DNA from: an uncultured Planctomycetia bacterium
GTDB taxonomy: Bacteria; Omnitrophota; Gorgyraeia; VGKH01; JBHPFN01
Direction of reading: 5' to 3'
Assembly: GCA_964406665.1 (NCBI GenBank)
Contig: CAYOSQ010000001.1
Location: forward strand, 71,412-135,411
DNA length: 64,000 nt
Shown here in pieces: positions 8,230 to 53,600 of the stretch. How positions within the stretch are numbered: the stretch's first letter is position 1; each line of letters opens with the position of its first letter. The position numbers and the translations under genes are program-made. The notes below the pieces were generated by a model. That model saw nothing but the letters and a program-made list of their open reading frames with translations, did not search any database and was not told the origin of the DNA.

Positions 8230-8421
8230 TCAAGTGTTTTTTTCGTTTTTAAGCTGAACAGAGATCTTAGCCGGCTTAGCGCCTTTCATGCCAAAAAGCC
8301 CTTTTTGCTCCTCGGAAAGCACTTTAACCACAATTTCTTCTCTGGAAACCTTAAGTTCAGCTAGTGCCTTCTGAATGGCTTCTTCTACATTTGAGCCTTC
8401 AAATTCTAAAGGTTTATCCAT
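8230..8421 (-). CDS. Jag/KhpB N-terminal domain-only small protein (63 aa)
   Basis: Sits immediately after yidC where jag normally lies; EAIQKALAELKVSREEIVVKVLSE resembles Jag_N, but no KH or R3H domains follow. Confidence 0.45.
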   Translation of the reverse strand: MDKPLEFEGSNVEEAIQKALAELKVSREEIVVKVLSEEQKGLFGMKGAKPAKISVQLKNEKNT

Positions 8422-10003: not shown

Positions 10004-10006
10004 ATT

Positions 10007-10213
10007 TTATTCTACAGGATCGTAGCCTCCTTCAAATAATTGATTACATCTTGCAACCCTGGAAACACCTTTTATTGTTCCTTTGACAAAACCCCATCTG
10101 TCCAGCGAACTTAAAAAATATTCAGAGCAAGACGGATAATACCTACAACTATGTGGTAGTATAGGGCTGATACATTTCCGATAAAAATTTATGAGAAGCT
10201 TTAGTATTATCAT
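10007..10213 (-). CDS. yidD: membrane protein insertion efficiency factor YidD
   Basis: ISPILPHSCRYYPSCSEY signature. Confidence 0.85.
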   Translation of the reverse strand: MIILKLLINFYRKCISPILPHSCRYYPSCSEYFLSSLDRWGFVKGTIKGVSRVARCNQLFEGGYDPVE

Positions 10214-10221
10214 GGATAGTA

Positions 10222-10359
10222 TCAGACAGCTAGACGCGCGCGGCCTTTGCGACGTCGTCGTTTTAAAACTGCGCGGCCAGAAGCAGAGCGCATTTTCCGA
10301 CGGAAACCATGCGTGCGCTTACCTTTTTTCTTTGTAGGAGTAGTGAGTGTTTTCTTCAT
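10222..10359 (-). CDS. rpmH: 50S ribosomal protein L34
   Basis: Hand translation of the reverse strand gives MKKTLTTPTKKKGKRTHGFRRKMRSASGRAVLKRRRRKGRARLAV; not in the supplied ORF track because it is below the length cutoff. Confidence 0.85.
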   Translation of the reverse strand: MKKTLTTPTKKKGKRTHGFRRKMRSASGRAVLKRRRRKGRARLAV

Positions 10360-10631
10360 GGTTTCAGAATTATAACATAATGGCTGTTGAAGTCAAGTAA
10401 TTTTGGCAGATAAAAATCGCATTGCAAATATTGTTGTTATGAATAACTGTGTTTTATTTTTTTGCATAGATCTGTTTTGGCAAAAATTTTTCATAGCGGT
10501 TTTTTTCACCTAAATAATTTCCTTTTGAGAATTAATAGCTATCAAAAAATGAAGAGAAAAATTTCCTTGAAAAATGTTTTTTCTTTGTTATAATGGTAAC
10601 ACTTAATTACAAAACTGGCTGTGCATAACTT

Positions 10632-10640
10632 GTGAATAAT
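10632..10640 (-). promoter_or_regulatory. DnaA-box-like 9-mer (TTATTCACA on the minus strand) in the rpmH-dnaA intergenic region
   Basis: Matches TTATNCACA; the same 9-mer recurs at 12093..12101. Confidence 0.3.
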
Positions 10641-10714
10641 GTTAATAACCGATTTTCAGTTATAGTGTGTTTACGAATTGCATGTGTTTCTCGCCGAGAA
10701 AATAGAAAGTTGCC

Positions 10715-12061
10715 GTGGAATTAAAAGAATTAAAAACTTATTGGGAACAAGCTCAGGGCTTTATTAAAGATCATGTTGGCCAAGCTGCGTATGAGACTTG
10801 GTTCTCTTCAATCCAGGCCGTACCCGCAAGCCCTGACCAAATCTTCCTTGAGATGCCTGATGACTTTTTCAAAGAGTGGGTGGTTGAACACTATGAAAAA
10901 ATCATACAGGAGTCGCTTAATAATGTTTCCGCTGAGGTCATCAAACTTGCTTTTAGGGTTAATCCTGATGTGATAAAAAAAGATGCTGTTGTTAAAGAAG
11001 TATCTCTCACACCAAGATACCCAATTCAAAACAGAAGACCTGCAGCTAACTTAAATCCGCGTTTTTCTTTTGATAGTTTTGTTGTGGGGCCCAGCAATCG
11101 CTTTACCCATGCTGCCTGTCAAGCCGTGGCTGAATCGCCTGCGAAAGCTTACAATCCGCTATTTATCTACGGTAAAGTAGGCTTGGGCAAAACTCATCTT
11201 ATGCAGGCAGTGGTACAAAAAATACGACAAGGCAAACCCGACTTGACGAGCTGTTATATAACTTCTGAACGCTTTACAAACGAACTTATAAACGCGATTC
11301 AACACCACTCAACCGAAAAATTCCGTCATAAATATAGGGAAATCGATATCCTACTTATTGATGATATCCAATTTATCGCCGGGAAGGAAGCCACACAAGA
11401 AGAATTTTTTCATACTTTTAACGCACTATATGACAACCATAACCAAATCGTGCTTTCTTCTGATAGGCCGCCTAAAGAAATTCAACACATGGAAGAAAGG
11501 CTTGTTTCTCGGTTCGCCTGGGGGCTTATAACTGACATACAACCACCGGATTACGAAACCCGTGTAGCCATTCTAAGGAAAAAAATTGAGAGAGAGCCCG
11601 TTAAGGCTCCTGATGATGTTATAGAATTTATTGCTCAACAAATTCAATCTAATATTCGCGAACTAGAGGGTGCACTTATTCGCGTGGTGGCATACTCGTT
11701 GTTGGAGGAAAAAGAAATTTGTTTAAGTATGGCTCAGGACGTTCTTAAAGATCTAGTGCGAGAAACCAGGGTGAATATCTCGGTTGAGGTTATTCAAAAA
11801 AAGGTGGCGGAAACATTTAATATCTCCATAAATGAACTTAAAGCAAAAAAGAGGAATAAAAACATTGTATTACCTAGGCAAATTGCTATGTTTCTATCTA
11901 GAGAACTTACAAATCTATCTTTGCCGGAAATCGGCGAGTCTTTTGGTGGTAAAGACCACACAACAATTTTACATGCCTGGAATAAAATACAAAGGGTCAT
12001 CAAAGAAGATCGAGACCTAAAATCAACGGTTGATAGAATTGTTCAAGGGTTTAAACAATAA
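10715..12061 (+). CDS. dnaA: chromosomal replication initiator DnaA (GTG start)
   Basis: AAA+ Walker A GKVGLGKTHL, box VII, and a C-terminal DNA-binding domain. Confidence 0.95.
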   Translation: MELKELKTYWEQAQGFIKDHVGQAAYETWFSSIQAVPASPDQIFLEMPDDFFKEWVVEHYEKIIQESLNNVSAEVIKLAFRVNPDVIKKDAVVKEVSLTPRYPIQNRRPAANLNPRFSFDSFVVGPSNRFTHAACQAVAESPAKAYNPLFIYGKVGLGKTHLMQAVVQKIRQGKPDLTSCYITSERFTNELINAIQHHSTEKFRHKYREIDILLIDDIQFIAGKEATQEEFFHTFNALYDNHNQIVLSSDRPPKEIQHMEERLVSRFAWGLITDIQPPDYETRVAILRKKIEREPVKAPDDVIEFIAQQIQSNIRELEGALIRVVAYSLLEEKEICLSMAQDVLKDLVRETRVNISVEVIQKKVAETFNISINELKAKKRNKNIVLPRQIAMFLSRELTNLSLPEIGESFGGKDHTTILHAWNKIQRVIKEDRDLKSTVDRIVQGFKQ

Positions 12062-13290: not shown

Positions 13291-16103
<2,813 letters not shown>

Positions 16104-19093: not shown

Positions 19094-20509
19094 ATGGAAA
19101 GAAAGCCAAAAATCATATCTAAACACTCTTCAAAAGCATACCTATTATTTTTAATGGTCATAGGGGTTTGTTTTCTTTCTGCCAATACCTGCTTTGCTGC
19201 TTTCACTTTAAACGCTACTCCTTATGAAGGTGGATTCGACTTACGTTTTGGTTCTGTTGCAGGTGGGGCAAAGGCAAATAAGGAAGTTTCTATTAGCGTA
19301 ACAAGCGATATTGCAAAACAATATCGTGTAATTCAAACTTTTGCTCCTCTTACCAACTCAAAAGGTACAAAGCTGCCAACAAATTCTGTGAGAGTATATA
19401 CATTAAGAGGTTCTAATGCGGCAGGTACTTTGGGCTATGATGTTGAAAGCCCAATTTTTTTAGGCCCGATGGTTCTTTATACTTCTGCAAGCGCTGGCCG
19501 CAGCGATTCTTTTGTTGCAGTTTATTCTGTTGATGTGCCGGCAGATCAGGATCCTGGGCTGTATCGTGGCAGATTGATTTATAGTCTGGAGCCGATTGGA
19601 GCAGCTAACCAGGCACCAGTTATTAAAACACTAAATATATCTGTTGAAGTTGGATCATCTGCACAGCTTAAGGTCGAGACAATAACCGGCGGGAAGACAG
19701 TTATTTTAAAAACTTCCGCAAGTCAACAGGATTTATCACGAGACGTACGCATACAAGTAACTGGTTCTCTGGGCAATCGTTATCGTATTGTACAAAAACT
19801 GTCTAGGCCGATTACTAGTGCAACAGGAAAACAAATTGCCAAAGAGGGTGTATCTCTTTATGCACAAGGTGGAGAAAAAGGACAGCTTGGTATAAAAAAA
19901 CTCAGCTCTTTACCTGCAACGAATGTTATTTTATATACTTCTGACGAGCGCGGCAGCGCCGATGAAATCATTTTAACTTTTGCTTTGAATGATATCGATC
20001 AAGACGCCGGGATTTACCGTGGTGCATTAACATATACGATTGAAAGCTCTGTTCCTGTTAAGGGTGCAGGCATGACACAGATGTTGCCAATAGAAATTGA
20101 GGTGACTCCGTTGTTTAATCTTGTTGTTACAACAGATCATTCGGGCAGCATCGTTTTTAGAGATTTAAAACCGAACCAGCCTCCCAAGACAAGCGTATCT
20201 TATGTTGAGATCAAAACTAATTCTGATAAACCATATCAGGTAATGCAGACGGTTTCTGGTCTTTTAACTACCAAGGAAGGTAAAACAATTCCTGCGGGAT
20301 TTTTTAAATTGAAAACAACATCTGAAGAAAACAAAGATGGAATTAAATATCCTAAAGAGGCTGCTGTAGAGGATGGACAAATGGTTTTATTTACGTCGCG
20401 AGACGGAAAATCTGCGAAGCTGAAAGTTATTTATAAACTGGACATACCAAGAGACATCCATTCCGGTAACTATTCTACCGGAATTATATATTCTTTATTA
20501 GAGATGTAG
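19094..20509 (+). CDS. secreted protein with three tandem SCPU-like (spore coat U / Csu-type pilin-like) domains
   Basis: Signal peptide; three roughly 140-aa repeats each containing an xxYRVIQT-like motif and ending G(L/I)YRG.L.Y(S/T)(L/I)E. Confidence 0.45.
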   Translation: MERKPKIISKHSSKAYLLFLMVIGVCFLSANTCFAAFTLNATPYEGGFDLRFGSVAGGAKANKEVSISVTSDIAKQYRVIQTFAPLTNSKGTKLPTNSVRVYTLRGSNAAGTLGYDVESPIFLGPMVLYTSASAGRSDSFVAVYSVDVPADQDPGLYRGRLIYSLEPIGAANQAPVIKTLNISVEVGSSAQLKVETITGGKTVILKTSASQQDLSRDVRIQVTGSLGNRYRIVQKLSRPITSATGKQIAKEGVSLYAQGGEKGQLGIKKLSSLPATNVILYTSDERGSADEIILTFALNDIDQDAGIYRGALTYTIESSVPVKGAGMTQMLPIEIEVTPLFNLVVTTDHSGSIVFRDLKPNQPPKTSVSYVEIKTNSDKPYQVMQTVSGLLTTKEGKTIPAGFFKLKTTSEENKDGIKYPKEAAVEDGQMVLFTSRDGKSAKLKVIYKLDIPRDIHSGNYSTGIIYSLLEM

Positions 20510-20550
20510 ATGCCTTATTGTAAATCTGACAACGAGGAGGGGAATTACAA

Positions 20551-21171
20551 ATGATTAGAAAAGCAACCATTGCATTGCTAGCGGTATTGTTTTTAGGCAT
20601 GAGTTCAATGTGCTATGCCGACAATATTGTGAACGTAGATGTCAACGCTCAGATCCCCGATATGCTGGAGTTGAGTTCATGGATTAAGTATTTTATGGAC
20701 GAAAACCAAACTCCATTAGGTGATGCTGAAAGCTTTGACTTTGAGACACTGACACATACCCTAGAAGGAGGAGGAGAGGCCGGCGTATGGTTTTCGAGGA
20801 AATGGTTTACCATTTATCTCGTTGCTAATACTGGTGGCAGACGCTATCAGCTTAAGCAAACCTGTACTGGTGTAACCTCTGGTGGCAACGACATCAACAG
20901 CGCATTCGTTGTTACGCCTAATTATTCAGAATATGATGAATTAGGTGGTGTACCACAGGGTCCGATTCCTGGAACAATAGGTGTTCCAAATTTGGCTGTA
21001 TCAACAGACCATGTCCTTTATACAAGTGACACTGGTGGTTTAGCTCGTATAATCCAGGGTATTTACGCTATTCCTAACGAGAGCGAAGTAACTGGATATG
21101 AATCAATTAGTTTTGATACTCCACAGGGTGTTTACGGTGGTGAGGTAGTTCTTACAGCGGTGCTGTATTAA
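20551..21171 (+). CDS. secreted single-domain SCPU-like putative pilus subunit
   Basis: Signal peptide; RRYQLKQT and C-terminal GVYGGEVVLTAVLY, homologous to the repeats in the upstream gene. Confidence 0.4.
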   Translation: MIRKATIALLAVLFLGMSSMCYADNIVNVDVNAQIPDMLELSSWIKYFMDENQTPLGDAESFDFETLTHTLEGGGEAGVWFSRKWFTIYLVANTGGRRYQLKQTCTGVTSGGNDINSAFVVTPNYSEYDELGGVPQGPIPGTIGVPNLAVSTDHVLYTSDTGGLARIIQGIYAIPNESEVTGYESISFDTPQGVYGGEVVLTAVLY

Positions 21172-21176
21172 TATAT

Positions 21177-21360
21177 AGTTAAGGGGAAACAGTTGACCTC
21201 TTGCACAGCGCAGATCTTGTCTTTATAAGCTGCGATAGGCAAAACTTGTTGCCAGCTGAATAATAAATTCAAGAGAAAGCTTGTCATAATCTTTGATTGT
21301 TTGGTATAATATCATATAATATTTATCAAAGATTAAAAGGGGTCTGTGTTTCCCCTTAAC
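21177..21360. repeat. 15-bp perfect inverted repeats (agttaaggggaaaca / tgtttccccttaact) flanking a 154-bp segment that carries a TTGTCA-18-TATAAT promoter
   Basis: IR-L 21177..21191 and IR-R 21346..21360, visible in the sequence. Confidence 0.5.
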
Positions 21361-21391
21361 TATTATAAAGCACTAATTTATAAGGAGGCAA

Positions 21392-22237
21392 ATGAACATA
21401 AGGCATTTGTTGATGAAGAGAATCTGTCTATGGTTTTTAATTTGTGCTGCTTTGTGCTTGTTTGGTGTAGTTTATAATGCTGATGCAAGCACAGTCCGCC
21501 TGCAAAGACCAAAGGTTAGATTGAGCATTCCCTCCGGAAGTACTGAAAGCGGTTCAATTACAGTAGCTAATCCCTCGGATAAGAACGTAAATGTTAAAGC
21601 GTATCTCGAAGACTGGATATATACAGCCACACAAGATGGAATTAAAGATTTTGCTCCGCCAGGGACAACTCCTTTGTCGTGTGCGAAATGGATCAGCTTT
21701 TATCCTGCCGAATTTACTCTGCCGCCGTTTGGGTCTAGGGAAATATTTTTCGTGGTTAAAGTTCCCAAGGCAGTAGACGGTGGACATTATGCAGTATTAT
21801 TTTTTGAAACCGTTGTGGGATCAACTGTAGATGCTACCGGAGTCAATATTTTAATTAAAGGGCGCATTGGGTCATTATTTTATATAGAGGCAGGGGGCGT
21901 ACAAAAAGAAGCAACCATTACAGATATTTCTATTGCTAAAGCAGGTAAGGAAACTGCAATAGAAGCAGTTTTAAATAATATTGGCAACGTTGATATAACC
22001 GCCAACGGTTCTTTCAATATCATCGACAGCAAGGGCATGGTTTTTGCAAGAGGTAAGTTTAATGAGGTTTACACTTTTCCTGGAGATAAGGCGACCATAG
22101 CATCTGCTTGGTCTGCGAAAATTCCTGCAGGAGAGTATGATTTAATAATAACGTTGGACTTAGGCAATAAACCTTTAATATACGAAGCAAAGATTAATGT
22201 AAATGCTGCTGGCGAGGTACGCTATGTTGCCCCTTAA
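21392..22237 (+). CDS. PapD-like periplasmic pilus chaperone-like protein
   Basis: Signal peptide; VRLSIPSGSTESGSITVANPSDKNVNVKAYLEDW, ISFYPAEFTLPPFGSREIFFVV and VNILIKGRIGSLFYIE resemble the N-domain strands of chaperone-usher chaperones. Confidence 0.4.
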   Translation: MNIRHLLMKRICLWFLICAALCLFGVVYNADASTVRLQRPKVRLSIPSGSTESGSITVANPSDKNVNVKAYLEDWIYTATQDGIKDFAPPGTTPLSCAKWISFYPAEFTLPPFGSREIFFVVKVPKAVDGGHYAVLFFETVVGSTVDATGVNILIKGRIGSLFYIEAGGVQKEATITDISIAKAGKETAIEAVLNNIGNVDITANGSFNIIDSKGMVFARGKFNEVYTFPGDKATIASAWSAKIPAGEYDLIITLDLGNKPLIYEAKINVNAAGEVRYVAP

Positions 22238-22258
22238 GAATAGAAAAAAAAGGAGTTT

Positions 22259-25200
22259 ATGCGTAGCTGTAAAAACAGTCAGAGTATTTGTTTAAAAACA
22301 ATCATCGCAAGATGTATTCTTGCGATTCTTACATTGTCCTTTTTTTCTGCAAGCCTTCTTTTTCTCTCCAGCAGCCCAGCTTACTCTGAAGACCTTTCTG
22401 ATTTCCTCTGTGAATTAGCCACCAAATATTATGAGCGCGGAGATTATCCTAACGCGTTACACGAATTCAAAAAAGCTTTAATGATCAATCCCCATAATCG
22501 CACTGCGCAAAAATACATTGCAATTATCAGCGATCTAGAAGAAGTTGTTGTTGAGCCATCACCTTATCTGCCCATCGAAAGCATTCCTCAGGAATACAGA
22601 GACAAAGCTATTAAAAATGCACTGGATAGTTTTGATGAGGTTATTTTTGTAAAAGAGCCATATATCCAAGAAGAAACAGAATCTCAACCACCATTAATTA
22701 TTATTGATTCAGATGACGAACAAACTTTTCCTCAAGAAGAGCTGGATAAGTTTGATGAGGTCAGGGTCTCTAGAGAGCAGACTATTTTGGAAGATGTTCC
22801 TAAAGAACCCTCGATAGTAATATCTCCTGTGCAGGATAGGGAGATTATTGTTCGAAGTGCGCTCGATGAATTCGAAGCACGGTATGGGGCGGAAGATATT
22901 GTAGATATTGTGCCAGAGCCAGAAGAGATTGTTGAGGAAGAGCCCGAACACGAAGAAGCTATTTATTATCCTATCGAACCAGAGGAAGAATTTCCAGAGG
23001 AATTTGTTTCTACATCTTATGTTGAACCTTCCACAGACATAGAAAAGCCAAAGGGTTTTAAGCGTCTTTATCTTAATGTAGAAGTTAGGGCTTCGCAGCC
23101 ACAAACACAAATAAGTTTACAAATAGACAGAGATTTAATAATTATTGGAAGTAATATTGCTAGGTTTCTTGTGATTAATCCTGAAATTTTAGAGATTGTT
23201 AGATTGCGTCCCGACGAGATAAAGCTTGTGGCTAAGAAAATTGGAAGTACTTACGTGCATATCTGGGATGATGAAGGCCGGTGGACTTTTATCGTTCAAG
23301 TGTCACCGTTTCGCTCTGGCAGGCCGACACTTGCCGAGCTATATCGTCAGCAAGCCGAAGAGGCTGGTTCGTTAAAATTCCATTATTATAATGAATGGCG
23401 TTCGTTTTATTCTGGAAGAAGAGCGGATAACCTAACAAGGGATTCTCTTACTCTATATCAAAGCTTGGGTCTTGATATGCAGACTCCTTATGGAGATGTT
23501 GATGGCCGCGTTCAATTAAACAGGCTAAATGAAGAAAGCGAGCTCTCATTTTATACTTTAGGATTAACCGATGGCATGGTAGGTCCGTTTAAGAATTTTG
23601 ATCTACGTGCTTTAGATTATTATATAGATTTTGATAATATTTCTTTTGGTGGTGCGAGCTTGCGCGGTGTGAGGTTAGATGCAGAAGCATTTAATGAAAA
23701 AGTGGATTATACGGTTTTCTGGGGCAAAGAGAAAAGTGGGGCATTTGGTCCACTTGCTCCGGGGCTTGAGGGTTCAAACAAGTCATATCTTAAAGGTATA
23801 AATTTTGGATTCAACTCTCCGGAAAACCTTTATCAGACGCTTTCCTATTTCGCCGGATATGGTTCTGATAGGAGTTCTTTGTTGTTCCAAGATGCCTATG
23901 ATTATACGGGCGAGCTTAACTTAGGCGATACAAAATTATTTACCAACGTCGGACACGATGGCTATTCTCTGGCTTATATGCTAAGAGGTGTATATACCGT
24001 TCCTAAGCTTCAGTTAGCCGGCGAGTTTAGAAATATTGACGATGATTTTTATAGCATAACCGGCAGACCTTATGCATCAGGAGAAGTTGGTGGTTTGGTG
24101 AGCTATCGCTATGCCCCTTCCAGAGATCTAGATATCTCAGGACGCCTGAATGTTTATAGGGACACCTTGTTTCCTAACCCTCAACACAAAGAAAGATATA
24201 ATGCGGATTTCGATACTGCCATACGCTATACCATTAATCCTAGTACATCTATGAGGTTAGATTATTATAATGTTCATGATACCGGCACTATATCGCCGCA
24301 TAAAGATGAGTCTGTAGGATTATCCTTGTACAAAACAATTGATTTCATTAGGCCGCTTAGTACGTTTGTAAACTTAAGACATCAATCTAGTAAAAATCCT
24401 AGTTCGACAACTCTGGACTATAAAAATGAAAAAGCTGGCTTTGGCGTAAGAGTTGGCTTAACCGATACGCTTAATTATTATATCTCCAAGGAATTCAATT
24501 GGCTGGAGGATTATGCCGGAGATGTAGAAAAACCGCATGTTTTTGAGACGGGGCTTGATTATAATACCCAAATTCTCGACAGCCCGTTTTATATAACCTC
24601 TAGGCTTTATTTCCGGGATGAAGAAAATGCTGCTTCAACAAGAAGTTTCTTGGCTGGTGAAGATAATTTAGAAGGACAGGCTGAATTAAGGTATACCCCC
24701 AACGAAGATTTTAATTGCTACGCAAATCTACGAGTTAATAACTACTGGGCGGAAAACGCCGATACTACCAAGCGCACAGAAGCAGAGATTCGTTTCGGTA
24801 CACAATGGACTTTTGATACCGGCTTGAAATGGAATCCCATAGGTAGCATAACAGGCATTGTTTTTAAAGACTTGAATTCAGATGGCAAGCGTCAAGCGGA
24901 CGAGATTGTTATGAAGGATATTAAAATTTTCTTAGGAAGAGAAAAATTTGATATAACCGATGAAGAAGGAGCGTATATCTTTAAAAATATCCGTGCTCGC
25001 AAAGCCTTTGTTTACTTAGATACTAATACGCTACCAGCTGGATATGTGCCGACGGAAGAGAAATCCCAAGAGATAACAATTCAAAACGGCAAACTTATAA
25101 ATGTTGATTTTGGTGTTATAGCGCGTTCCGAAATATATGGTATTGTGTTTAAAGACTTAAATAGCAACGGAGAATTTGATGCTCAAGACGAAGGCGTGAG

Positions 25201-25420
25201 AGATGCTGTTCTATCTTTAGAAGATGGTTTAACAACCTCTACGAATGCAAGAGGTCAGTTTTATTTAAGAGAAGTTGCTCCTGGAAAACACACTCTTACC
25301 CTAGACATAAATAGCCTACCTATTAATCTTATTCCTTTGGTGCCGTTATTTAAAGAGATAGAGGTGTTTGAGGGAATTACCTATGTGCACAATATTCCTT
25401 TGAAAGAAACACAAGACTAA
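22259..25420 (+). CDS. large outer-membrane/cell-surface protein: N-terminal TPR, acidic linker, pilus-assembly (CpaC/secretin-N-like) domain, beta-rich Y/G/D/N region, and two C-terminal Cna-B/SdrD-B-like domains; putative usher-like component
   Basis: Motifs LQIDRDLIIIGSNIARFLVINPEILEIVRLRPDEIKLVAKKIGSTYVHIWDDEG; duplicated GIVFKDLNS(D/N)G...D modules at the C-terminus. Confidence 0.45.
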   Translation: MRSCKNSQSICLKTIIARCILAILTLSFFSASLLFLSSSPAYSEDLSDFLCELATKYYERGDYPNALHEFKKALMINPHNRTAQKYIAIISDLEEVVVEPSPYLPIESIPQEYRDKAIKNALDSFDEVIFVKEPYIQEETESQPPLIIIDSDDEQTFPQEELDKFDEVRVSREQTILEDVPKEPSIVISPVQDREIIVRSALDEFEARYGAEDIVDIVPEPEEIVEEEPEHEEAIYYPIEPEEEFPEEFVSTSYVEPSTDIEKPKGFKRLYLNVEVRASQPQTQISLQIDRDLIIIGSNIARFLVINPEILEIVRLRPDEIKLVAKKIGSTYVHIWDDEGRWTFIVQVSPFRSGRPTLAELYRQQAEEAGSLKFHYYNEWRSFYSGRRADNLTRDSLTLYQSLGLDMQTPYGDVDGRVQLNRLNEESELSFYTLGLTDGMVGPFKNFDLRALDYYIDFDNISFGGASLRGVRLDAEAFNEKVDYTVFWGKEKSGAFGPLAPGLEGSNKSYLKGINFGFNSPENLYQTLSYFAGYGSDRSSLLFQDAYDYTGELNLGDTKLFTNVGHDGYSLAYMLRGVYTVPKLQLAGEFRNIDDDFYSITGRPYASGEVGGLVSYRYAPSRDLDISGRLNVYRDTLFPNPQHKERYNADFDTAIRYTINPSTSMRLDYYNVHDTGTISPHKDESVGLSLYKTIDFIRPLSTFVNLRHQSSKNPSSTTLDYKNEKAGFGVRVGLTDTLNYYISKEFNWLEDYAGDVEKPHVFETGLDYNTQILDSPFYITSRLYFRDEENAASTRSFLAGEDNLEGQAELRYTPNEDFNCYANLRVNNYWAENADTTKRTEAEIRFGTQWTFDTGLKWNPIGSITGIVFKDLNSDGKRQADEIVMKDIKIFLGREKFDITDEEGAYIFKNIRARKAFVYLDTNTLPAGYVPTEEKSQEITIQNGKLINVDFGVIARSEIYGIVFKDLNSNGEFDAQDEGVRDAVLSLEDGLTTSTNARGQFYLREVAPGKHTLTLDINSLPINLIPLVPLFKEIEVFEGITYVHNIPLKETQD

Positions 25421-25726: not shown

Positions 25727-25754
25727 CGGTACCACCTCCATAAATTTTCAAAAA

Positions 25755-25812: not shown

Positions 25813-25905
25813 CTACGGCAACCCGACAACCATAAAGACAGCCGATGTCTTTTTAGGCTCAAGGCTTTGTGCCCTACTCTTTCGAAGTAGTTTACTTTTA
25901 AGGAT
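25813..25905 (-). ncRNA. candidate c-di-GMP-I (GEMM) riboswitch aptamer, copy 2 (proximal to the CDS)
   Basis: Minus-strand RNA GUAAACUACUUCGAAAGAGUAGGGCACAAAGCCUUGAGCCUAAAAAGACAUCGGCUGUCUUUAUGGUUGUCGGGUUGCC matches the recalled GEMM-I consensus (GCAAACC, GAAA-capped P1, GGACGCAAAGCC, GGGUUACC-like 3' end). Confidence 0.55.
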
Positions 25906-25929
25906 TTGAAAGAACGTTGCTTCCAACAA

Positions 25930-25960: not shown

Positions 25961-25961
25961 T

Positions 25962-26042
25962 TTGGCAACCCTGCCGCCTTCCCCCTTTCGGGAATAAGGC
26001 CGTTGGTTTTGCGTCCTTAGATTTCTCTAAGTTTGCCTTTTT
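25962..26042 (-). ncRNA. candidate c-di-GMP-I (GEMM) riboswitch aptamer, copy 1 (distal)
   Basis: Minus-strand RNA GCAAACUUAGAGAAAUCUAAGGACGCAAAACCAACGGCCUUAUUCCCGAAAGGGGGAAGGCGGCAGGGUUGCC; P1 CUUAGA-GAAA-UCUAAG with the GACGCAAAACC core. Confidence 0.5.
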
Positions 26043-26237
26043 CAAAAGCTAATATACTCTATAGAAACTATAGCACACAAAAAGCGCTTTTTCAAGTTGG
26101 CCAGGTAAATTTCTGAAAATTTTTAAACATCCTATTATGACATTTAAGCGTAACCGCTGAATTAGCTTTACTTTAGGTTTCTGCTATGATAGAATAGCAT
26201 TCACATTCAACAATATTTTTTAATCAAAAAACAAAAA

Positions 26238-28851: not shown

Positions 28852-29016
28852 TTATATAGACAATGTTGAAAGGGTTGCCCGTCCAGAAATCTGGATTGGG
28901 TGGCAAAACTATAGGACCGCTTTGTTTAGCAGCGGCAACCAGTTGCCAGCATTGAATAATGTAGACCCATTCTAATGGAGTGGGTTATTTTTTATGGGTT
29001 TTAAAAGGAGATTAAA

Positions 29017-30342
29017 ATGAGGTCAAGAGGATTTTCTTTACAAGAAGTTCTGATTACTATTGTTTTAGTTCTTGTTTTAGGTGGGGCAGCGTTTAAAGCA
29101 CTTGTTGTTGGCCAAAACACATTTTTTTCTAGCTCTGCTCTGCTAGACTTGCAGCAACATGCTCGTGAAGGCATAGATAGAATGACAGATGAATTACGAC
29201 ACAGCGCATCGGGAAAAGTTACAATTTATCAATGTCCTTCAGAAGTATGTGAGGGTGGCGCTATAGCATTTCAGGTTCCTGTAGTTACGGATGATCCTAT
29301 AGCTGGAAGCACATTTAAACCAACCGGCTTTGGTGCCGCACAGAAAAAGTGGGGGTTTGATGGAAGGGAAAGTTCTTCACCAATTATTTATTTGGCTCCT
29401 GCTGCCGGCGGTGCTTTGTCTCAATATAGTGGTAAATTAATTAGATTAACATCCAAAGATCAATATTGTGGAAATGGTATCTGTGAGACCGGAGAAACAA
29501 TAGCTTGTTGTCCTGATTGTAGTTTTGTTTCTGGTGATGGAGTATGTTGTTCTAATTTAGGAGAACGCTCTTGGAATTCTAGCGATTGCGGGGCTTGTTT
29601 TCTTAAAGAGACGCCCATACAGATGGCAGATGGAACTTCAAAAAATATTGAAGATATAAAAATTGGTGATATGGTATTATCTTTTGATGAGCAGGAAAAG
29701 AAGTTAGTGGCTGACGAAGTAAAAAACGTTGCTAAACAAAAAGCAGATAATTATATTATAATAAATGGCCATTTAAGGGTTACACCCAATCATCCGTTTT
29801 ATAGTAATGGTCGATGGATGCCCATAGGAGATCTACAAGTAGGAGATGTTATTTTTACTTCACAAGCCAAAGAAGAGCTTATTACGGAAATTGTAAAAGT
29901 TGAAGATACTGTTGAAGTATATGATATAGAAGTTAATCCATATCATAATTATTTTGCCGGAGGCTATCTAGTGCACAATAAGGAGGTATTGCCAGAAATA
30001 CCACCAGTTATGGAAGGTGGCGGTTCGTTTGAAATACCTGGCGGGCGCAGTTGGCTAGGGCCTCGTTTGTTTCTAGGCATAGCCTTTGCTCAGGAAGTTT
30101 CTCCTTTAGCACCAAATATAGATATGTATGATACATTGCCTGCGCTTGACAGTATATCTAATTATGATATTAAGATTCTTGCAGAAGACGTTAGAGGGGT
30201 TTATTTTCTTGGTACGCCCCTTCCGCCGGATAAGCCAAACACCGTAACAGTATTTGTGGATATGTATAAAGAGATTTTTGGCGGCGGTGACGTGCAGACA
30301 CATTTATCAACAGAGATGAAGTTAAGAAATCTTAGTTTGTAA
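29017..30342 (+). CDS. type IV pilin-like protein (class III signal peptide RG|FSLQE) with a Cys-rich module and an embedded Hint/BIL domain (about nt 29596..29979)
   Basis: N-terminal MRSRGFSLQEVLITIVLVLVL; Hint blocks CFLKETPIQMADGTSKNIEDIKIGDMVLS, TPNHPFY and VYDIEVNPYHNYFAGGYLVHN. Confidence 0.6.
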   Translation: MRSRGFSLQEVLITIVLVLVLGGAAFKALVVGQNTFFSSSALLDLQQHAREGIDRMTDELRHSASGKVTIYQCPSEVCEGGAIAFQVPVVTDDPIAGSTFKPTGFGAAQKKWGFDGRESSSPIIYLAPAAGGALSQYSGKLIRLTSKDQYCGNGICETGETIACCPDCSFVSGDGVCCSNLGERSWNSSDCGACFLKETPIQMADGTSKNIEDIKIGDMVLSFDEQEKKLVADEVKNVAKQKADNYIIINGHLRVTPNHPFYSNGRWMPIGDLQVGDVIFTSQAKEELITEIVKVEDTVEVYDIEVNPYHNYFAGGYLVHNKEVLPEIPPVMEGGGSFEIPGGRSWLGPRLFLGIAFAQEVSPLAPNIDMYDTLPALDSISNYDIKILAEDVRGVYFLGTPLPPDKPNTVTVFVDMYKEIFGGGDVQTHLSTEMKLRNLSL

Positions 30343-30368: not shown

Positions 30369-33140
30369 ATGATGAGAAGCTTTAGGCTTAACAACAAGGG
30401 AGCAGCTCTTCTGCTAATTTCTCTTTTATCGCTTATAATGTTAGCGGTTATCGCAGGAGTTCTGTTTTCTCGCACTGTAGGAGAAAATCTGTTGGTTAAA
30501 AATGAACAGATCAGCTTTGAAGCACAGTATGCTGCAGAACAAGGAGCGGAGGCGGTATATTTAGAGCTATTAAATGCTCCGTTTCGTTCTCGGTGGTATA
30601 CACACGAAGTTCCCAATTTTCACTTTGGAGACAATACTTTGGATCAGGCGAATCCTCCTGTCGTTTCTACGGCCGATCTCGTAGTTCCCAACACCATGAT
30701 TAATACTTTAGGAGAATATGCTTCTACTGATGGTAGCAATGTCAGCTTTATTGCTAAAATATATAATGATCCTTCTACTTTATATTCCGGAAGAGAAAAA
30801 ATTATCCTGATAAAAGGTTTTAGCAGTGATGGAAGGCGCTCAAGATTATTGGCTGTTAAGGCTTCGATGCATTCTTTATTTGAATATTTTATGTTTGCCC
30901 CAACAACAGGAATAAATTTTGAAGGCGGTACTTTTGATGCCGGCGGAGGTAAAATTCATTCCGAAGGCGGGATGCAATTTTATTCAGGTGCAGAGATTAA
31001 TAATGTAAGTCAGCTAAGCACTTCCGGCGGATCATTTTTCTACTATACGTATCCACGCAGACCACCATTATGGATTGATCCTGTTGCTGGAGTTCCGCCA
31101 CCAGGAATGTTTACAGATGCCGACGGAAGAACTTTGGCTATGCGCGAAGATACAGGATCGCCGGATGGAACCACTTGGGCAGAGATATTTGCTCTTGGGC
31201 CTGATTTTGCTCCTGAAGACTATTGGCAACAGGGGTGGTGTGGCAATGCAGAAGCATTTGAGGAGTGCTCTTTTGATGTTCAGGCAGCCACTATGTATCC
31301 TGATACAGGCGCCGAAGGTCTCTTAGAGGATAAGTTTATACACCAAAGCACTACCGGTCGCTTAATGGGAGATAGGTATGGAGCTATTTGTTATAACCCG
31401 AATGTAGGTTATGAAACCAGTTGGGATTGTGCAGAGCTCTGGGGTACATATGAGGCAGGAGCGATTTGGGATATGGTTGATCCAGATTTTGATACTGATT
31501 CTGCAAGAGTATATATGTATGATGATTATGGATCATCTACGGAATTAAACAGTAGCGCAGCTACAATACAGCCCGTAGGCGCAGATCCTGTTAAGCTTCC
31601 TAACAGGCTTTTGGATTCTCCATATAGACGACCTAAATATTATACTGATCAGAATCAAGAGGGATATCGCCGCGAAGAACATGATGGGGAGCATTATGTT
31701 TATCCTGCTAATACAGGAGCGGGGGCATATGATCCGGAGGACATGGAAGGTACTTGTTCGGGTGAGGTATGTCCAGATGTTACATATCTTAACAGTCTTA
31801 AACAGCCGGAATCTTGGTCTACATTTTTGCAAGATACCGGATTATACGGAACTGTAATGGATGCTAACACAGGCGCACCAGAAGAAGGCATTGCTCCTCC
31901 GAGAATAGACGCTGATGCATTAAGGGATCTTGCCATGCAAGATGGCATTAGGATTATTAATACTGTGGATTCTGAGGAGTGGAATGATAATCCAGAACTA
32001 TATTATGAGAATCCTGACTTTACTTTGCAAGACAACGGAAGCTACCAGGTTATAATCAAGGGGCAGATTTACATGCCAAATCCAGAAGGCAAGATTATAG
32101 TTAATATACCTGGGTTAGGTTCAGTCACTCTGTTTGAAAAAATAGGGTTTTATCGCGCAATTGATACACACTACGAACAATCTGTCAAAATCGACGTAGG
32201 TAATCTTAAGGCTGCTATGGCGGAAGATCCTGATAATTTTGCCACAGATTTAAACTTTGCTTATTCCGATTACCCAGTAGCCTTGGTAAATGGAGAAAGT
32301 CTCCCAGAGGGTGGTTGGAGTGTTGTTTCCGACGGAGCAGTTTATATAACAGGTAATTACAATACCGTTGATTATCAACCAGCTATGGTTTTAACGCCGG
32401 TTAATAAAACATATCTGCTTGGTCCGGATTACGATTTTCCTGACTATGTTCCGTATACTTTGGAGCATGTAGACGAAAACTACAATATGCCTGATGGGGA
32501 ACAGGATTGGTGGAATAATAATTATAATGATCAGAAACCATCAGAAGTTAATGAGGATATGACATATCGTGTATCGATAATAGGTTATAATGCTGCAAAA
32601 ACTACTTGGTTGCGTTGGGAAAACAGTAATGAGATTTGGAGTGATTGGAATGGAGGGCCAGATCGTCCATGGATTACGAAAGAGATCGCAGGAACTTTGT
32701 ATCGTCTGCCGTATGATCCAAGTGCTTCTCCGGGTGACGAGGATTATTATAATCGTGTATACGACTATGGAGGTGTTGGTAGAATTGCAAGAAGAAAATG
32801 TACGGGTTGCAATGGCGTAGGTCATACCATGGGTATTGTTCCTGATGGAGCCGGATATGCTGTTTGTCGAGGTTGTTCGGAATGGTGTTTTACTCCAGGA
32901 GAAGGAGTGAGTGCGACTAACATAGGCTCTTTATGTGATAATTACGATGGCCCTCAAGCCTCTACTGGTACTAACAGCACTACTTATTCTTGGGAGCCAG
33001 ATTATATGAATGGTAATTTGCCGCCCCCTGATTTAGCAGGTATGAATTTTGCTGCCTGGATGTTGCTTGCGGACACACAAGAGAATTTTAATAATCACCT
33101 AAGTGCATTGCAAAGTGAGGAAACTGAAATTATAGAATAA
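30369..33140 (+). CDS. large (923 aa) PilX-like minor-pilin/tip-associated protein with C-terminal CxxC pairs
   Basis: N-terminal NNKGAALLLISLLSLIMLAVIAGVLFSRTVGENLLVKNE resembles PilX_N; C-terminal CTGCNGVGH...CRGCSEWC. Confidence 0.45.
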   Translation: MMRSFRLNNKGAALLLISLLSLIMLAVIAGVLFSRTVGENLLVKNEQISFEAQYAAEQGAEAVYLELLNAPFRSRWYTHEVPNFHFGDNTLDQANPPVVSTADLVVPNTMINTLGEYASTDGSNVSFIAKIYNDPSTLYSGREKIILIKGFSSDGRRSRLLAVKASMHSLFEYFMFAPTTGINFEGGTFDAGGGKIHSEGGMQFYSGAEINNVSQLSTSGGSFFYYTYPRRPPLWIDPVAGVPPPGMFTDADGRTLAMREDTGSPDGTTWAEIFALGPDFAPEDYWQQGWCGNAEAFEECSFDVQAATMYPDTGAEGLLEDKFIHQSTTGRLMGDRYGAICYNPNVGYETSWDCAELWGTYEAGAIWDMVDPDFDTDSARVYMYDDYGSSTELNSSAATIQPVGADPVKLPNRLLDSPYRRPKYYTDQNQEGYRREEHDGEHYVYPANTGAGAYDPEDMEGTCSGEVCPDVTYLNSLKQPESWSTFLQDTGLYGTVMDANTGAPEEGIAPPRIDADALRDLAMQDGIRIINTVDSEEWNDNPELYYENPDFTLQDNGSYQVIIKGQIYMPNPEGKIIVNIPGLGSVTLFEKIGFYRAIDTHYEQSVKIDVGNLKAAMAEDPDNFATDLNFAYSDYPVALVNGESLPEGGWSVVSDGAVYITGNYNTVDYQPAMVLTPVNKTYLLGPDYDFPDYVPYTLEHVDENYNMPDGEQDWWNNNYNDQKPSEVNEDMTYRVSIIGYNAAKTTWLRWENSNEIWSDWNGGPDRPWITKEIAGTLYRLPYDPSASPGDEDYYNRVYDYGGVGRIARRKCTGCNGVGHTMGIVPDGAGYAVCRGCSEWCFTPGEGVSATNIGSLCDNYDGPQASTGTNSTTYSWEPDYMNGNLPPPDLAGMNFAAWMLLADTQENFNNHLSALQSEETEIIE

Positions 33141-33167: not shown

Positions 33168-33200
33168 GCAGCCCTTTCTTTAAAGAATGGGCTGTTTTTT
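33168..33200 (+). terminator. rho-independent terminator after the pilin locus
   Basis: gcagccc...gggctg hairpin followed by TTTTTTT. Confidence 0.5.
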
Positions 33201-33217
33201 TCAGATAATATATTGCC

Positions 33218-33246
33218 CTTGACATTATTGAAATTTAATGCTATAT
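33218..33246 (+). promoter_or_regulatory. pyr operon promoter (TTGACA-17-TATATT)
   Basis: Consensus hexamers visible in the sequence. Confidence 0.4.
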
Positions 33247-33317
33247 TTCTACAAATACCTTTAAGCTGGTACTGTGAGACTGGCAAGGACAAGACATGAA
33301 AACAAAAAAACAACATT

Positions 33318-33350
33318 CAATAATGACCTCGAAAAACAATCGAGGTATTT
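33318..33350 (+). terminator. pyr leader attenuator terminator (putative PyrR-controlled)
   Basis: acctcg-aaaaacaat-cgaggt hairpin followed by ATTTTTTTG, 25 nt before the pyrR start. Confidence 0.5.
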
Positions 33351-33374: not shown

Positions 33375-33914
33375 ATGAAAAATAATAAAAGAATTTTAGA
33401 TAAAACCAGCATCGAGCGCACCTTAAAACGCATTGCCCATGAAATCATTGAGAAGAATAAGGGTGTTTCAGATGTTTGCTTGGTTGGGATAAGAACAAGA
33501 GGCGTGTTTCTTGCTGAGCGTCTCAAAGAATACATACAACAAATAGATAGCAAAGATGTTGCGCTAGGTGTTTTAGATATCACTCTTTACCGTGACGATT
33601 TAACCTTAGTTGCTGAACAGCCGGTTATAAGGCAGACACAAATAGACTTTGATATTACTGATAAAAAAGTTATTTTAGTCGACGATGTGTTGTATACCGG
33701 ACGTACCATAAGGTCTGCGTTAGATGCTTTAATAGACTTTGGCAGACCTAAAACTATTCAGCTTGCGGTATTGATTGACCGCGGCCATAGAGAATTGCCT
33801 ATCCGGGCGGATTACGTGGGAAAAAATATTCCTACGGCTAAGACCGATACCGTAGAGGTAAGTCTTAGGGAACAAGATGACAAAGATGAGGTTGTAATAG
33901 TTGAGCGAGAATAA
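33375..33914 (+). CDS. pyrR: bifunctional pyr operon regulator / uracil phosphoribosyltransferase PyrR
   Basis: [21 protein letters not shown] PRTase motif. Confidence 0.9.
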
Positions 33915-50377: not shown

Positions 50378-50514
50378 AAGTAGGCAGGGGGTGGGCTTAA
50401 GGGGATATCCACATAGTTAGACCGAAGGTCGTCAAGAAACCGCTTTCTTGAAACACTACATTTACTCTTTTCTTTGTAGAATTAGATGTTATTCTTTTAG
50501 TAATAGACAGATAA

Positions 50515-50650
50515 AGGTAAACCATCAGAGATGGTGGGACGCAAAGCCACGGGTCTAGGAAGGGTCAGCCTAGATTAATATAAAGTCTTTTTGAAGAATA
50601 TCTTAGGCAATTATCCTTTATTTAGATAGCCGGGTTACCAAAAGGTGGTT
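50515..50650 (+). ncRNA. candidate c-di-GMP-I (GEMM) riboswitch aptamer, copy 3
   Basis: GGUAAACCAUCAGAGAUGGUGGGACGCAAAGCCACGGGUCUAGG...AGCCGGGUUACC; an 11-bp GU-containing stem gccggguuacc-aaaa-ggugguucggc followed by a U-rich tract, then the AAGGAGAG SD and ATG at 50683. Confidence 0.45.
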
Positions 50651-50682: not shown

Positions 50683-53600
50683 ATGAAAAAGAAAAAAATC
50701 CTAGGAATAATTATTTGTTTAATAGTGATAGCAAGCCTCTGTTTTTTAGGTAATGCTGTGGCATTTCAAGGTCAAGATGCTAATACAAAATTAAATCAAC
50801 AGGCTAATAAGCTTTTGACGCCAGATGTGAAAAAGATCAATGAACTTGCGTCTGATGTCCGGGCAAATATCGAAAGACTCACTCAGAAAAGAAGTGACAT
50901 AGAAATTTCGAGTTGGAATTTGTCTACGGAGACACCACATAGAATAATTTCTAAAAACATTAGATTAGGCAAAAATATTCAAATCAACAAAGATAATATA
51001 GAGTCACTTACGAAAAATTTCATTTTGAGTCAACGAGATTTGCTGAAAGCGGATATAACTAATCTGAAGTTAATAAGGGCGCATAACATCAACAATAAAT
51101 GGTATGTAACATATCAGCAATATCTAAATAATATCCCAGTATATTATGGACTTGTTGAAATTAGAATGAGTGGAAAAGGAGAAATTTCGCTTTTTGGTTC
51201 AGATTACCATTCTGAAATAGAAATTTCCACCAAACCTTCGATTCTTGATGAAAAAGTTATACGCATAGCTCAAAAGGATATTGAGTTCAATGAAAGCACA
51301 GATTCAATATTTTCTTATCCAGGACTTATAGTTCTACCTGTTCAAGATGGCGGATCTATAAAATATCAGCTTGCCTACAGACTCGTACTTTCTACCAAAA
51401 ACCCTATTGGAAGCTGGGTTTTCTTTATTGATGCGCACAATGGAACGATACTTGCCAAGTATAACAATATCAAATTTTACCAAATTGATGGCAGTGTTAA
51501 TGGAGAAATATTACCGCAATATTATGATGATGAATTGGTGCAGAAAAATTTTATTCATGAAAGGGTTGAAGTTCAAGATATTGGATATGATTATACTGAT
51601 TTGGATGGATATTTCAGCATTACTGGAGATGCAGATGAAGGAGAGCAATTTACTTTAATTTCAGAATTAAAAGGCCCATATGTAGATGTGGATTATGAAG
51701 ATGGTGATGATGCAATTTATCTCGAAGAAATTGAAGCTCAGGGAACGTATGATTGGACATGGGATGCTTCTTTAGGGAGGCAGGACGAACTCAATGTTTA
51801 TTATCACGTCAATCGAATCCATGATTATGTAAAGAATAATCTTGGGTTTTCTGGCATGGATTATCAAATGAAGGCAATGGTTTCTGTTTTTGAATATTGG
51901 GATAATGCATTTTACAACCCAGATGATGAAAGCATTAACTTTGGAGCAGGTGGTGTAGCTTATAGAAATTTTGCTCTTTTTTCTGACGTTATTTATCATG
52001 AGTATGCCCATGGCGTTACTGATCATATTTATCCGGAAGGTTCGCTGCCTTATTTTGGACAATCAGGAGCAATGAACGAGGGTTTTTCAGATTACTTTGC
52101 GTGTACAATTAGTAATGAGCCTTATTTAGGAGAGGGGGGGCTCAGTAAATTTGGCTTGCCATACATGCGTACAGTTGATAATTCGGCTCGATACCCAGAT
52201 GATTATATCAACCGAGTACATCATGACAGCATGATTTTTTCTGGTTCTTTGTGGGATTTGAGAGAAATGTTAATAGATAAATACGGTGAGAATTATGGCA
52301 TAAAAAAAACCGATACTTTATCACATCTTGCTCGCTTTGGATATCCTGAAAATTTTGAGGATTATCTCCTTGAACTTTTATTTGTTGATGATGATAATGG
52401 CAATATTTATGACGGCACACCTAACTCTGTCGAAATATATACGGCTTTTTCTAGACATGGAATAGGTCCTGAGCCCACTGCGGTAGGTATTCAATATTTT
52501 GGTTCATTTATTGATGATGCAAATGGCAATAATAACGGATTGCTTGATCCGGGTGAAACTGTAGAGCTTGAAGTCACCCTTTTAAATAATCTTATAGAAA
52601 GTCTAGGCGGTTATGCAATTCATAATGTTACAGCTAGGCTAGTTAGCGTCGATCCATATATTACCGTTTCGAATAAGAAAATTTTGGTTGGAGATCTTAA
52701 ACCTCAGGAAACGGGTGTTGCAAGATTTAAGATTACGCTGGAAGATGCACCTGTTGATTGGAACGATTATCAAATTGACTTTTCTTTAGAAATAACCGGT
52801 TCCCCTGTTACTACAAATAATTTTTCTATAGATGCTACGGATTTTTGGCAAAGCAATTTTCGGATTCCAGTTGCATTTTTGGATTTGACTCATAGAAAAT
52901 CCTGGTATTATGATGAAGAGCTAGGAAATAATGATCGTTTTGCAAATCCGGGGGAAACAGGAGAGATATTAATTGCTGTTAAAAACACCGGTCTTCTTGT
53001 TGCCACGGGAGTAGTTGTAAAAGTTGCTTCAAACAGTCCATATGTATTTGTTCTAGAGGATGAGGCTTATATTGAGGATATCGATCCAGGAGATAGTGGA
53101 TATGCTTCTGTGATGGTTCAATTTTCTGATACAGTTCCCGTAGGCATAGAAGTTGACTTTAAAGCTGAAATTAGCGCTGACGAAGGTTTTTTAATGTATT
53201 TTCCAATAGAGATATTTGTTCCCAGGATAATATTTGATGATCATGCTTCATCAAGCGGAGTTGTTGGGGATTCTACTTATTATCTTCAGCAAGCTGTGTT
53301 TGGTGATTATGATAATGATAATGATCTGGATATCTATATGGCTATGCATGAAGATTGGACAGTTCCAGCCCTGGATTTGCTCTATCGAAACAACGCAGAT
53401 GGCACGTATACAGAGTTAGGAGAAGAAGCAGGAGTGAATTCATTGTTGTCTTCAACGCGCGCTACGTTTTTTGACTATAATAATGATAACTGGCTAGATT
53501 TATTTATTTTGCACGATGAGGATAATACTCTGTTTCGCAATAATGCAGATGGAACTTTTACTGATGTAACTATGGAAGCAGACATAGATACTAACGGACA

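Follow-up and report, generated by a model that had tools for sequence, protein, structure and literature searches.

A probable giant capping minor pilin encoded behind a Hint-bearing pilin in Candidatus Omnitrophota

Main

The minor pilin PilX of Pseudomonas aeruginosa has about 195 residues, and the tip proteins PilY1 and PilC are not pilins, carrying a Sec signal and a C-terminal β-propeller domain. Thermus thermophilus ComZ is a pilin in which a β-solenoid of about 380 residues precedes the last strand of the pilin fold, the pilin domain itself being closest to that of GspK; PilA2, the minor pilin encoded beside it, is bound by ComZ, for which a location at the filament tip has been argued (PMC6561018). 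A domain of the same kind is found in cyanobacterial PilX, which lacks the glutamate at position 5 of the mature pilin (Glu5), caps the filament and has been proposed to replace PilY1; a missing Glu5 characterises the terminal PilX/GspK subunit (bioRxiv 10.64898/2026.02.12.705559). Here we describe the gene of a 923-residue protein (the giant protein) at positions 30369–33140 of the forward (+) strand of a 64-kb stretch of DNA, referred to as the window, whose product is probably a ‘capping’ minor pilin of the GspK/PilX class, belonging to a type IV filament of Candidatus Omnitrophota that is most likely a type IVa pilus. Features described below lie on the + strand unless marked (−).

Omnitrophota were without a cultured isolate according to a 2023 survey; type IVa pilus genes are common in the phylum, and attachment to cells is considered central to its lifestyle (PMC10066038). 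The window is assigned to this phylum because its GyrA is 87–70% identical to Omnitrophota GyrA proteins. Judged by its family features, genomic position and predicted N-terminal anatomy, the giant protein is a member of the capping-pilin class, and most likely it and the pilin encoded directly upstream make up a bulky, adhesive tip on a type IV pilus.

The giant protein and its family

An earlier reading of the window from its letters (the original prediction) had placed the 923-codon open reading frame exactly; the frame starts with ATG. The frame did not arise by chance, since an exhaustive phmmer scan of 1.84 billion representatives returned 93 relatives at E ≤ 1e-3, 67 of them at E ≤ 1e-10. 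Four relatives are full-length (900–956 residues, 35–37% identity), and most of the others have 650–1076 residues. Those that bear names are ‘hypothetical protein [Candidatus Omnitrophota bacterium]’ (NCBI) or ‘hypothetical protein’ (JGI). A word-indexed homologue search retrieved the query only, both with the single protein and with a 50-sequence profile. The whole protein had no match in Pfam or NCBIfam, and none of 50 family members scanned against Pfam reached E ≤ 0.01, except for a marginal CBM_20 match in one. Conservation across the family is concentrated in residues 1–240, 481–540, 631–750 and 871–900, with variable regions at 241–480 and 751–870.

The N terminus has the anatomy of a prepilin. 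A basic leader of 11 residues (30369–30401) ends at a candidate prepilin-peptidase site, KG↓AALLL, so that the protein begins MMRSFRLNNKG↓AALLLISLLSLIMLAVIAGVLFSRTVGENLLVKNE, with candidate cleavage after Gly11, and a hydrophobic segment of about 20 residues follows the leader (MMRSFRLNNKG↓AALLLISLLSLIMLAVIAGVLF). In 50 aligned family members position −1 is Gly in 47, position +1 is most often Phe and position +5 is I, L, V, M or A (Leu16 in the window) and never Glu; further along the chain, A56, G59, E66 and the motif W76-x-T78-H79 are nearly invariant. The window’s partner pilin, unlike the giant protein, retains Glu5 (FSLQE).

This N terminus had been likened to PilX_N, and PilX_N (PF14341) was indeed the sole Pfam match when the N-terminal 93 residues were scanned alone, pairing residues 12–58 with positions 3–48 of the 51-position profile (16 bits, E 0.012), below the gathering score of 25.5 bits. 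It was also the only Pfam match to recur on 30 N-terminal fragments of the family, with E ≤ 0.1 in just 4 of them (best E 6e-4). The match is not diagnostic, because an ordinary 129-residue small pilin from a related locus (L008) scores equally, at 16.5 bits. The broader claim of the original prediction, a PilX-like minor pilin about five times the normal length, is supported mainly by family anatomy and gene neighbourhood rather than by this match. No match was found to the Pfam families T2SSK, T2SSI and T2SSJ. A PilY1-like identity was rejected, as Pfam finds no PilY1/PilC domain in the giant protein and its N terminus is pilin-like.

The composition agrees with the original description of a repeat-free protein rich in Asp, Tyr, Asn and Trp: Tyr and Trp are each enriched 2.1×, Asn 1.6× and Asp 1.4× over a supplied background of SwissProt-type frequencies, and self-BLAST found no internal repeats. 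Acidic residues number 133, basic residues 55.

Gene order in related loci

Gene neighbourhood is the strongest line of evidence on the giant protein. Twelve loci with family members (denoted by L numbers) were examined; L006 and L012, where the DNA begins too close to the giant gene, do not enter the count of upstream genes. In the locus scan, alignments A1 and A2 were too divergent, and the five-sequence alignment A3 yielded two genomes only. Where the 5′ flank is covered, the giant gene directly follows a homologous pilin gene, or another giant gene that itself stands behind such a pilin, the sole exception being the first giant gene of L008, which opens its operon. The arrangement is pilin–giant in L004, L005 and L013 and, with a Hint domain in the pilin, in L007 and L018; it is extended to Hint-pilin–giant–pilin–giant in L010 and L016 and to Hint-pilin–giant–giant in L017. 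The original prediction of a two-gene tip module formed with a Hint-pilin is supported by this recurrent pairing, the location at the tip being presumed.

Fuller pilin sets occur at two loci. L009 has pilin173–pilin218–giant behind a two-component system, and L008 has giant–pilin129–pilin198–pilin181–pilin212–giant with a T2SSE-family ATPase gene nearby; in the neighbouring small and mid-sized pilins, N_methyl motifs score at threshold or close to it. These full sets run from small pilin through mid pilin to giant, the order of both gspI–gspJ–gspK and pilV–pilW–pilX. The giant protein might accordingly be read as the GspK-type tip of a type II secretion pseudopilus, or of another non-surface type IV filament, remaining in the periplasm and pushing or selecting cargo. 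The gspI–gspJ–gspK-like order, the ATPase gene adjoining the L008 cluster and the resemblance of the ComZ pilin domain to GspK (PMC6561018) would all suit such a filament, which we nevertheless consider unlikely: in L015 the pilin–giant pair and a group comprising pilM, a secretin gene and three small open reading frames stand back to back, a type IVa-style layout; T2SSK, T2SSI and T2SSJ are unmatched; a head of about 700 residues with hypervariable regions, and hypervariable inserts in the partner, are more in keeping with a diversifying, exposed surface than with a piston in the periplasm; and the filament commonly reported for Omnitrophota is the type IVa pilus.

In the window itself, a regular-expression scan of the 64 kb found one canonical prepilin motif, and Pfam scans of about 27 open reading frames revealed no gene for a pilus motor, platform or peptidase and no PilMNOPQ gene, so a pilus machinery operon in the window was rejected. 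Because only one prepilin motif is present and the scans contain no assembly genes, the window unit is a detached two-gene module holding only the last two genes of a pilin set, in agreement with the earlier view that this is not a standard pilus operon. Of the pilus machinery genes that had been proposed as something to look for elsewhere, pilM and a secretin gene lie at L015.

Predicted domain architecture

A single-sequence AlphaFold model of the giant protein was uninformative, with a predicted local distance difference test score (pLDDT) of 34; AlphaFold2 with the 50-sequence alignment gave a pLDDT of 76.6 and a predicted template modelling score of 0.79. In the latter model residues 2–69 form a single helix of 68 residues (means of 10-residue blocks, pLDDT 82–97). 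The part beyond the leader, residues 12–69 (30402–30575), is hydrophobic and then amphipathic, corresponds to a pilin α1 helix and is the region of the sub-threshold PilX_N match. Residues 109–168 (30693–30872) follow as antiparallel strands, assigned by DSSP to 109–111, 117–119, 126–133, 143–151 and 158–168 (block means 81–95, family occupancy 0.85–0.91), which may form the pilin-fold sheet.

A helix of this kind could also belong to a signal-anchored (type II membrane) protein, periplasmic or at the surface, with a pilin-like N terminus that never polymerises. Curated pilin models all stay below threshold on the giant protein, sub-threshold PilX_N matches occur on any pilin-like helix, and ComZ itself is not a predicted PilD substrate (PMC6561018). 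We regard a plain signal anchor as improbable, since Gly at −1 and the helix motif A56, G59, E66 and W76-T78-H79 are near-invariant over about 90 divergent clusters, the giant gene stands directly behind a prepilin-motif gene, or behind a giant gene that follows one, in the examined loci, and the modelled helix far exceeds the length of a membrane anchor.

The capping pilin would carry a large head. Residues 173–870 (30885–32978), about 700 residues rich in Tyr, Trp, Asn and Asp, are modelled mainly as short β-strands, with runs of these at 173–269 and 630–684; conserved cores at 181–240, 481–540 and 631–750 alternate with variable stretches at 241–480 and 751–870, and the region has no Pfam, NCBIfam or Protein Data Bank (PDB) sequence match. 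The chain ends with strands at 871–874 and 891–900 (block means 79–90, family occupancy 0.97) within residues 871–900 (32979–33068), which may return to the pilin sheet. From the order of secondary-structure elements and from conservation, we infer that the head interrupts the pilin fold ahead of its last strands. The runs of short strands and the conserved terminal strands would be compatible with a triangular β-solenoid lying between the penultimate and final strands of a pilin, as in ComZ and cyanobacterial PilX.

In a Foldseek search of the model against the PDB, ComZ (6qvi) was the sole near-significant match (E 1e-3; next match, E 2.8), and against viral structures no match was better than E 0.9. 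Structure prediction, which had been suggested as a check, gave support in the form of a long N-terminal helix and of ComZ as the one fold match near significance. When the family profile was compared with PDB sequences, a Geobacter pilin alone was matched, in its N-terminal helix (E 0.36).

The head may alternatively be an enzyme or toxin, for example a β-helix degrading polysaccharide or cell wall, delivered on the pilus tip, with adhesion secondary. β-Solenoid folds are typical of glycan-degrading, tailspike-type enzymes (PMC6561018), the head is aromatic- and acidic-rich, the partner pilin has a pretoxin-type Hint domain, and Omnitrophota have been proposed to be predators or parasites (PMC10066038). 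An enzymatic head is nonetheless very unlikely given that Pfam and NCBIfam recognise no catalytic or other family across 50 members, that Foldseek returned no enzyme or viral tailspike match and that the invariant residues revealed no catalytic motif.

The protein has 12 Cys residues, of which a cluster lies at residues 811–856 (32799–32936) as CTGC 811–814, CRGC 833–836, C840 and C856. The C-terminal CxxC pairs noted in the original prediction are thus present, but as pairs they are peculiar to this sequence, and only the first Cys of each is conserved in the family: C811 in 30 and C833 in 27 of 50 members, against Cys at 814 in 2 and at 836 in 12, with R834 in 45. A conserved CxxC...CxxC metal site was rejected on these counts. 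In an exported protein, an even Cys count points to disulfides more than to a metal site, and a C811–C833 disulfide seems more likely. Further pairs (291/300, 341/354 and 463/468) are restricted to the five closest relatives. The cluster is poorly modelled, with pLDDT <50 over 815–829 and 841–868.

The partner pilin and its Hint domain

The gene directly upstream, at 29017–30342, encodes a 441-residue minor pilin in the PilW/GspJ position with a Hint insertion; the original prediction had noted a Hint-pilin here. The protein starts MRSRG↓FSLQEV, a prepilin motif that scores just below cutoff with N_methyl (17.8 bits) and TIGR02532 (16.0 bits), and matches PT-HINT at E 4e-16, with both the N- and C-terminal intein motifs present. 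The Hint region covers approximately 29596–29976, from C194 through His-Asn at residues 319–320. A gap of 26 nt, in which no terminator candidate was seen, separates the partner gene from the giant gene, and the unit closes with the intrinsic terminator predicted earlier for both genes (33168–33202; stem 33168–33195, −16.5 kcal/mol, z = −3.0, seven U).

Partner pilins of the family share the blocks FQVPV, WG, LIR and IIAxDI, and their C-terminal motif is mostly LRN or a close variant. They have one hypervariable insert site, occupied by a Hint domain, by a Cys-rich insert or by nothing. The Hint domain is present in six partner pilins, that of the window and those of L007 (5636–6970), L010 (857–1972), L016 (1–1066), L017 (304–1509) and L018 (2792–3928); CGNGxC repeats fill the site in L004 and L013, short Cys-rich inserts in L005 and the second pilin of L010, and it is empty in L008 and L009. 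Such a site would mark the tip as a fast-evolving contact surface and is a place to seek host or prey specificity.

In three aligned Hint-pilins the domain opens with Cys and closes with His-Asn, and the next residue is Lys or Arg in all three. The domain cannot splice, because Lys or Arg rather than a nucleophile follows His-Asn, and a canonical splicing intein was therefore rejected. The domain could instead cleave the pilin, or transfer it to a nucleophile, after the tip has been deployed. In ultra-small, host-dependent Omnitrophota, the pilus tip might then be a self-processing device gated by cyclic di-GMP (c-di-GMP), which releases or covalently locks its cap, a rather unlikely scenario in our estimate; were it true, the giant cap would be freed, or fixed covalently onto the surface of prey or host.

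Elsewhere in Omnitrophota, GyrA homologues of 1013–1276 residues (P0172, P0191 and P0193) contain the intein/Hint domains PF14890, PF14528 and PF13403. Hint-type elements seem, from these intein-bearing GyrA proteins, to be common in the phylum.

Leader RNA and c-di-GMP riboswitches

Four of the related modules are preceded by riboswitch aptamers of the c-di-GMP-I clan. These lie 60–110 nt 5′ of the Hint-pilin gene and score above threshold in L007 (59.6 bits), L010 (56.7), L018 (48.5) and L017 (43.5), which are all the related Hint-pilin–giant modules with upstream DNA covered. The best model for L007 is RF03167 (GGC-variant), yet its sequence CAAAGC has the canonical A at the defining position. 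In L007, L010, L004 and L013 the aptamer is succeeded by a hairpin of the form ACCCATyC...GrrTGGGT and a T-run, equivalent to the terminator of the window leader described below.

The leader of the window unit (28859–28954) is a divergent, uncertain member of this class. It matches the full length of the Rfam c-di-GMP-I model at 17.6 bits (E 0.3–0.4), below the gathering score of 35 bits (RF01051; clan CL00126). Alone, such a match would be noise, but the four related modules score above threshold. R1, a custom covariance model made from nine bona fide aptamer copies, scored the window leader at 15.5 bits (E 0.18) and, in the closest relatives of the window, matched divergent copies placed directly upstream of the giant gene: L005 (7509–7597; 29.1 bits, E 6e-5), L004 (7832–7927; 28.5 bits, E 8e-5) and L013 (4792–4909; 22.9 bits, E 2e-3).

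The four variant leaders, all below the Rfam threshold, align well, with compensatory changes in the closing stem (P0) and in P1, and have a continuous P1 helix in place of the canonical GGyAAACC / GGGrCrCAAAGC internal loop. This subclass keeps the GCAAAAC and AACCAGUUGCC blocks, with a terminator 3′ of the aptamer. The window leader folds into two hairpins within the closing stem; it retains that stem, the P1 and P2 hairpins and the GCAAAAC and AGUUGCC blocks, with GGyAAACC replaced by GGUUGCCC. Its candidate expression platform is an intrinsic terminator at 28964–28993 (10-bp stem 28964–28986, then a T-run) that lies 30 nt 5′ of the partner pilin’s start codon.

From these comparisons we conclude that the pilin–giant module is ancestrally under c-di-GMP-I-type riboswitch control. 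The leader of the window’s subgroup might conceivably be a GEMM-I variant of changed ligand specificity, and the variant leaders as a whole may represent a riboswitch variant with a different ligand.

Three bona fide c-di-GMP-I aptamers lie elsewhere in the window. Two are in tandem, at 25814–25906 and 25961–26047 (−; 62.9 and 78.2 bits), before an 89-residue open reading frame at 25741–25472 (−) that has an N-terminal hydrophobic, signal-like segment and whose motif VSVSARIPALLEM resembles the VDVNAQIPDMLEL that starts a 206-residue open reading frame at 20551–21171; L004 likewise has tandem aptamers, at 15619–15837. The third, at 50506–50642 (62.8 bits, with a long insertion), precedes the gene of a 1349-residue protein (50683–54732) with a thermolysin-type M4 peptidase domain, FG-GAP repeats and an ASPIC/UnbV domain. 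A GAF and HD_5 (HD-GYP-type) protein encoded at 56289–57590, a likely c-di-GMP phosphodiesterase, accords with extensive c-di-GMP signalling in this genome.

A proposed model of the pilus tip

The following assembly is proposed for the adhesive tip. The basic leader ending in Gly and the hydrophobic helix would insert the giant protein into the inner membrane as a pilin does, with presumed processing by PilD after the Gly. Because it lacks Glu5, its only place would be at the far end of the filament, as the initial subunit. Its helix and small pilin sheet would pair with the upstream pilin in the PilW/GspJ position, and the two together would nucleate the filament. The acidic, aromatic-rich head, placed before the last strands, would then sit at the tip as plug and adhesin, in the role of ComZ in Thermus, of the β-solenoid PilX in cyanobacteria and of PilY1/PilC in Proteobacteria. 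The two genes would form a single transcription unit, and as this unit stands behind c-di-GMP-I-class riboswitches with terminator platforms in the relatives, tip synthesis is probably coupled to c-di-GMP.

Several observations weigh against this model. The curated pilin families in Pfam and NCBIfam all remain below threshold on the giant protein, and its PilX_N score is unspecific, being reached by an ordinary small pilin. The placement of the head within the pilin fold follows the order of secondary-structure elements rather than coordinates; the ComZ match is weak (probability 0.3–0.38, template modelling (TM) score 0.11–0.21, root-mean-square deviation >20 Å), and the family profile retrieved neither ComZ nor GspK from PDB sequences. 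The window has no PilV/GspI-like pilin or assembly machinery in the regular-expression and Pfam scans, and its leader RNA falls below every threshold, with Rfam and R1 alike. A head of about 95 kDa would have to pass the secretin if it is surface-exposed.

The model offers a testable role and a name for about 90 protein clusters of very large proteins, the named ones of which are now ‘hypothetical protein’, in a phylum believed to live attached to other cells. Its most distinctive aspects are the Hint-bearing partner and the riboswitch link, through which a second messenger would act at the RNA level on the assembly of a particular pilus tip.

Other features of the window

The window is an origin-of-replication region, with yidC (8414–10003, −), dnaA (10715–12061) and then dnaN, gyrB and gyrA. 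The cumulative GC skew has its minimum at approximately 8000–10700, between yidC and dnaA, and the chromosomal replication origin probably lies in the window.

A cluster at 19094–25420 begins with three open reading frames (471, 206 and 281 residues) that have N-terminal hydrophobic, signal-like segments and no family match, and ends with a 1053-residue protein (22259–25420) with TPR, T2SS-T3SS_pil_N and SdrD_B/CarboxypepD_reg-like domains. The last was considered as pilus machinery and rejected, as it belongs to this separate cluster of secreted proteins. To judge from its domains and signal-like segments, the cluster may be an undescribed surface-fibre or secretion system, distinct from the pilin pair.

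Downstream of the pilin–giant unit, a strong promoter-like site (33219–33247) lies upstream of the pyrR-like gene (33375–33914) of pyrR–pyrB–pyrC, and a terminator-like hairpin with a T-run (33326–33346) stands just before that gene. The hairpin could be a PyrR-type attenuator; no Rfam family reached its gathering score there.

Comparison with known systems

The giant protein resembles GspK and P. aeruginosa PilX, the largest and last-encoded members of their sets, which lack Glu5 and cap the GspI–GspJ–GspK and PilV–PilW–PilX priming complexes. It differs in being about five times as long as a typical PilX, in leaving T2SSK unmatched and in reaching PilX_N only below threshold; the insert of GspK is, moreover, α-helical and at another insertion point (PMC6561018). 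With PilY1/PilC it shares a proposed role, that of a large tip protein that plugs the filament and adheres (bioRxiv 10.64898/2026.02.12.705559); unlike these, it has its own pilin-type N terminus and no β-propeller domain detected by Pfam.

Streptococcus sanguinis PilB and PilC likewise join a pilin module to a bulky adhesive domain, PilB being bimodular with a von Willebrand factor A-like module (bioRxiv 10.1101/2021.01.27.428410). In the giant protein, by comparison with such modular pilins, no known domain is recognised, and the extra region, from the order of secondary structure, is apparently inserted rather than appended.

T. thermophilus ComZ (PDB 6QVI) is alike in being a large minor pilin with a bulky β-rich insert, encoded beside the minor pilin that it binds. 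The 6qvi chains have 498–518 residues, without the signal peptide and hydrophobic N terminus, compared with 923 for the giant protein; the two have no detectable sequence similarity and superpose poorly (TM 0.11–0.21). ComZ binds DNA, whereas the strong acidity of the giant protein (133 acidic versus 55 basic residues) argues against DNA binding. The ComZ locus is a pilin locus of five genes without a Hint domain or riboswitch, unlike the window module.

The cyanobacterial proteins PilX-Com and PilX-EPS/HpsA, which belong to another phylum and are likened here by description, are PilX-position core minor pilins that also lack Glu5; a bulky apical domain is set between their penultimate and final strands. 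Dedicated PilV/PilW partners accompany these proteins, which have been proposed as tip plug and adhesin (bioRxiv 10.64898/2026.02.12.705559). The Omnitrophota family differs from them in its mostly two-gene unit, the Hint or Cys-rich inserts of its partner and its c-di-GMP-I-class riboswitches. If the proposed reading of the giant protein is true, a PilX with a bulky head instead of PilY1 would be common to Thermus, cyanobacteria and Omnitrophota, with the head largest, and the unit reduced to two genes, in Omnitrophota.

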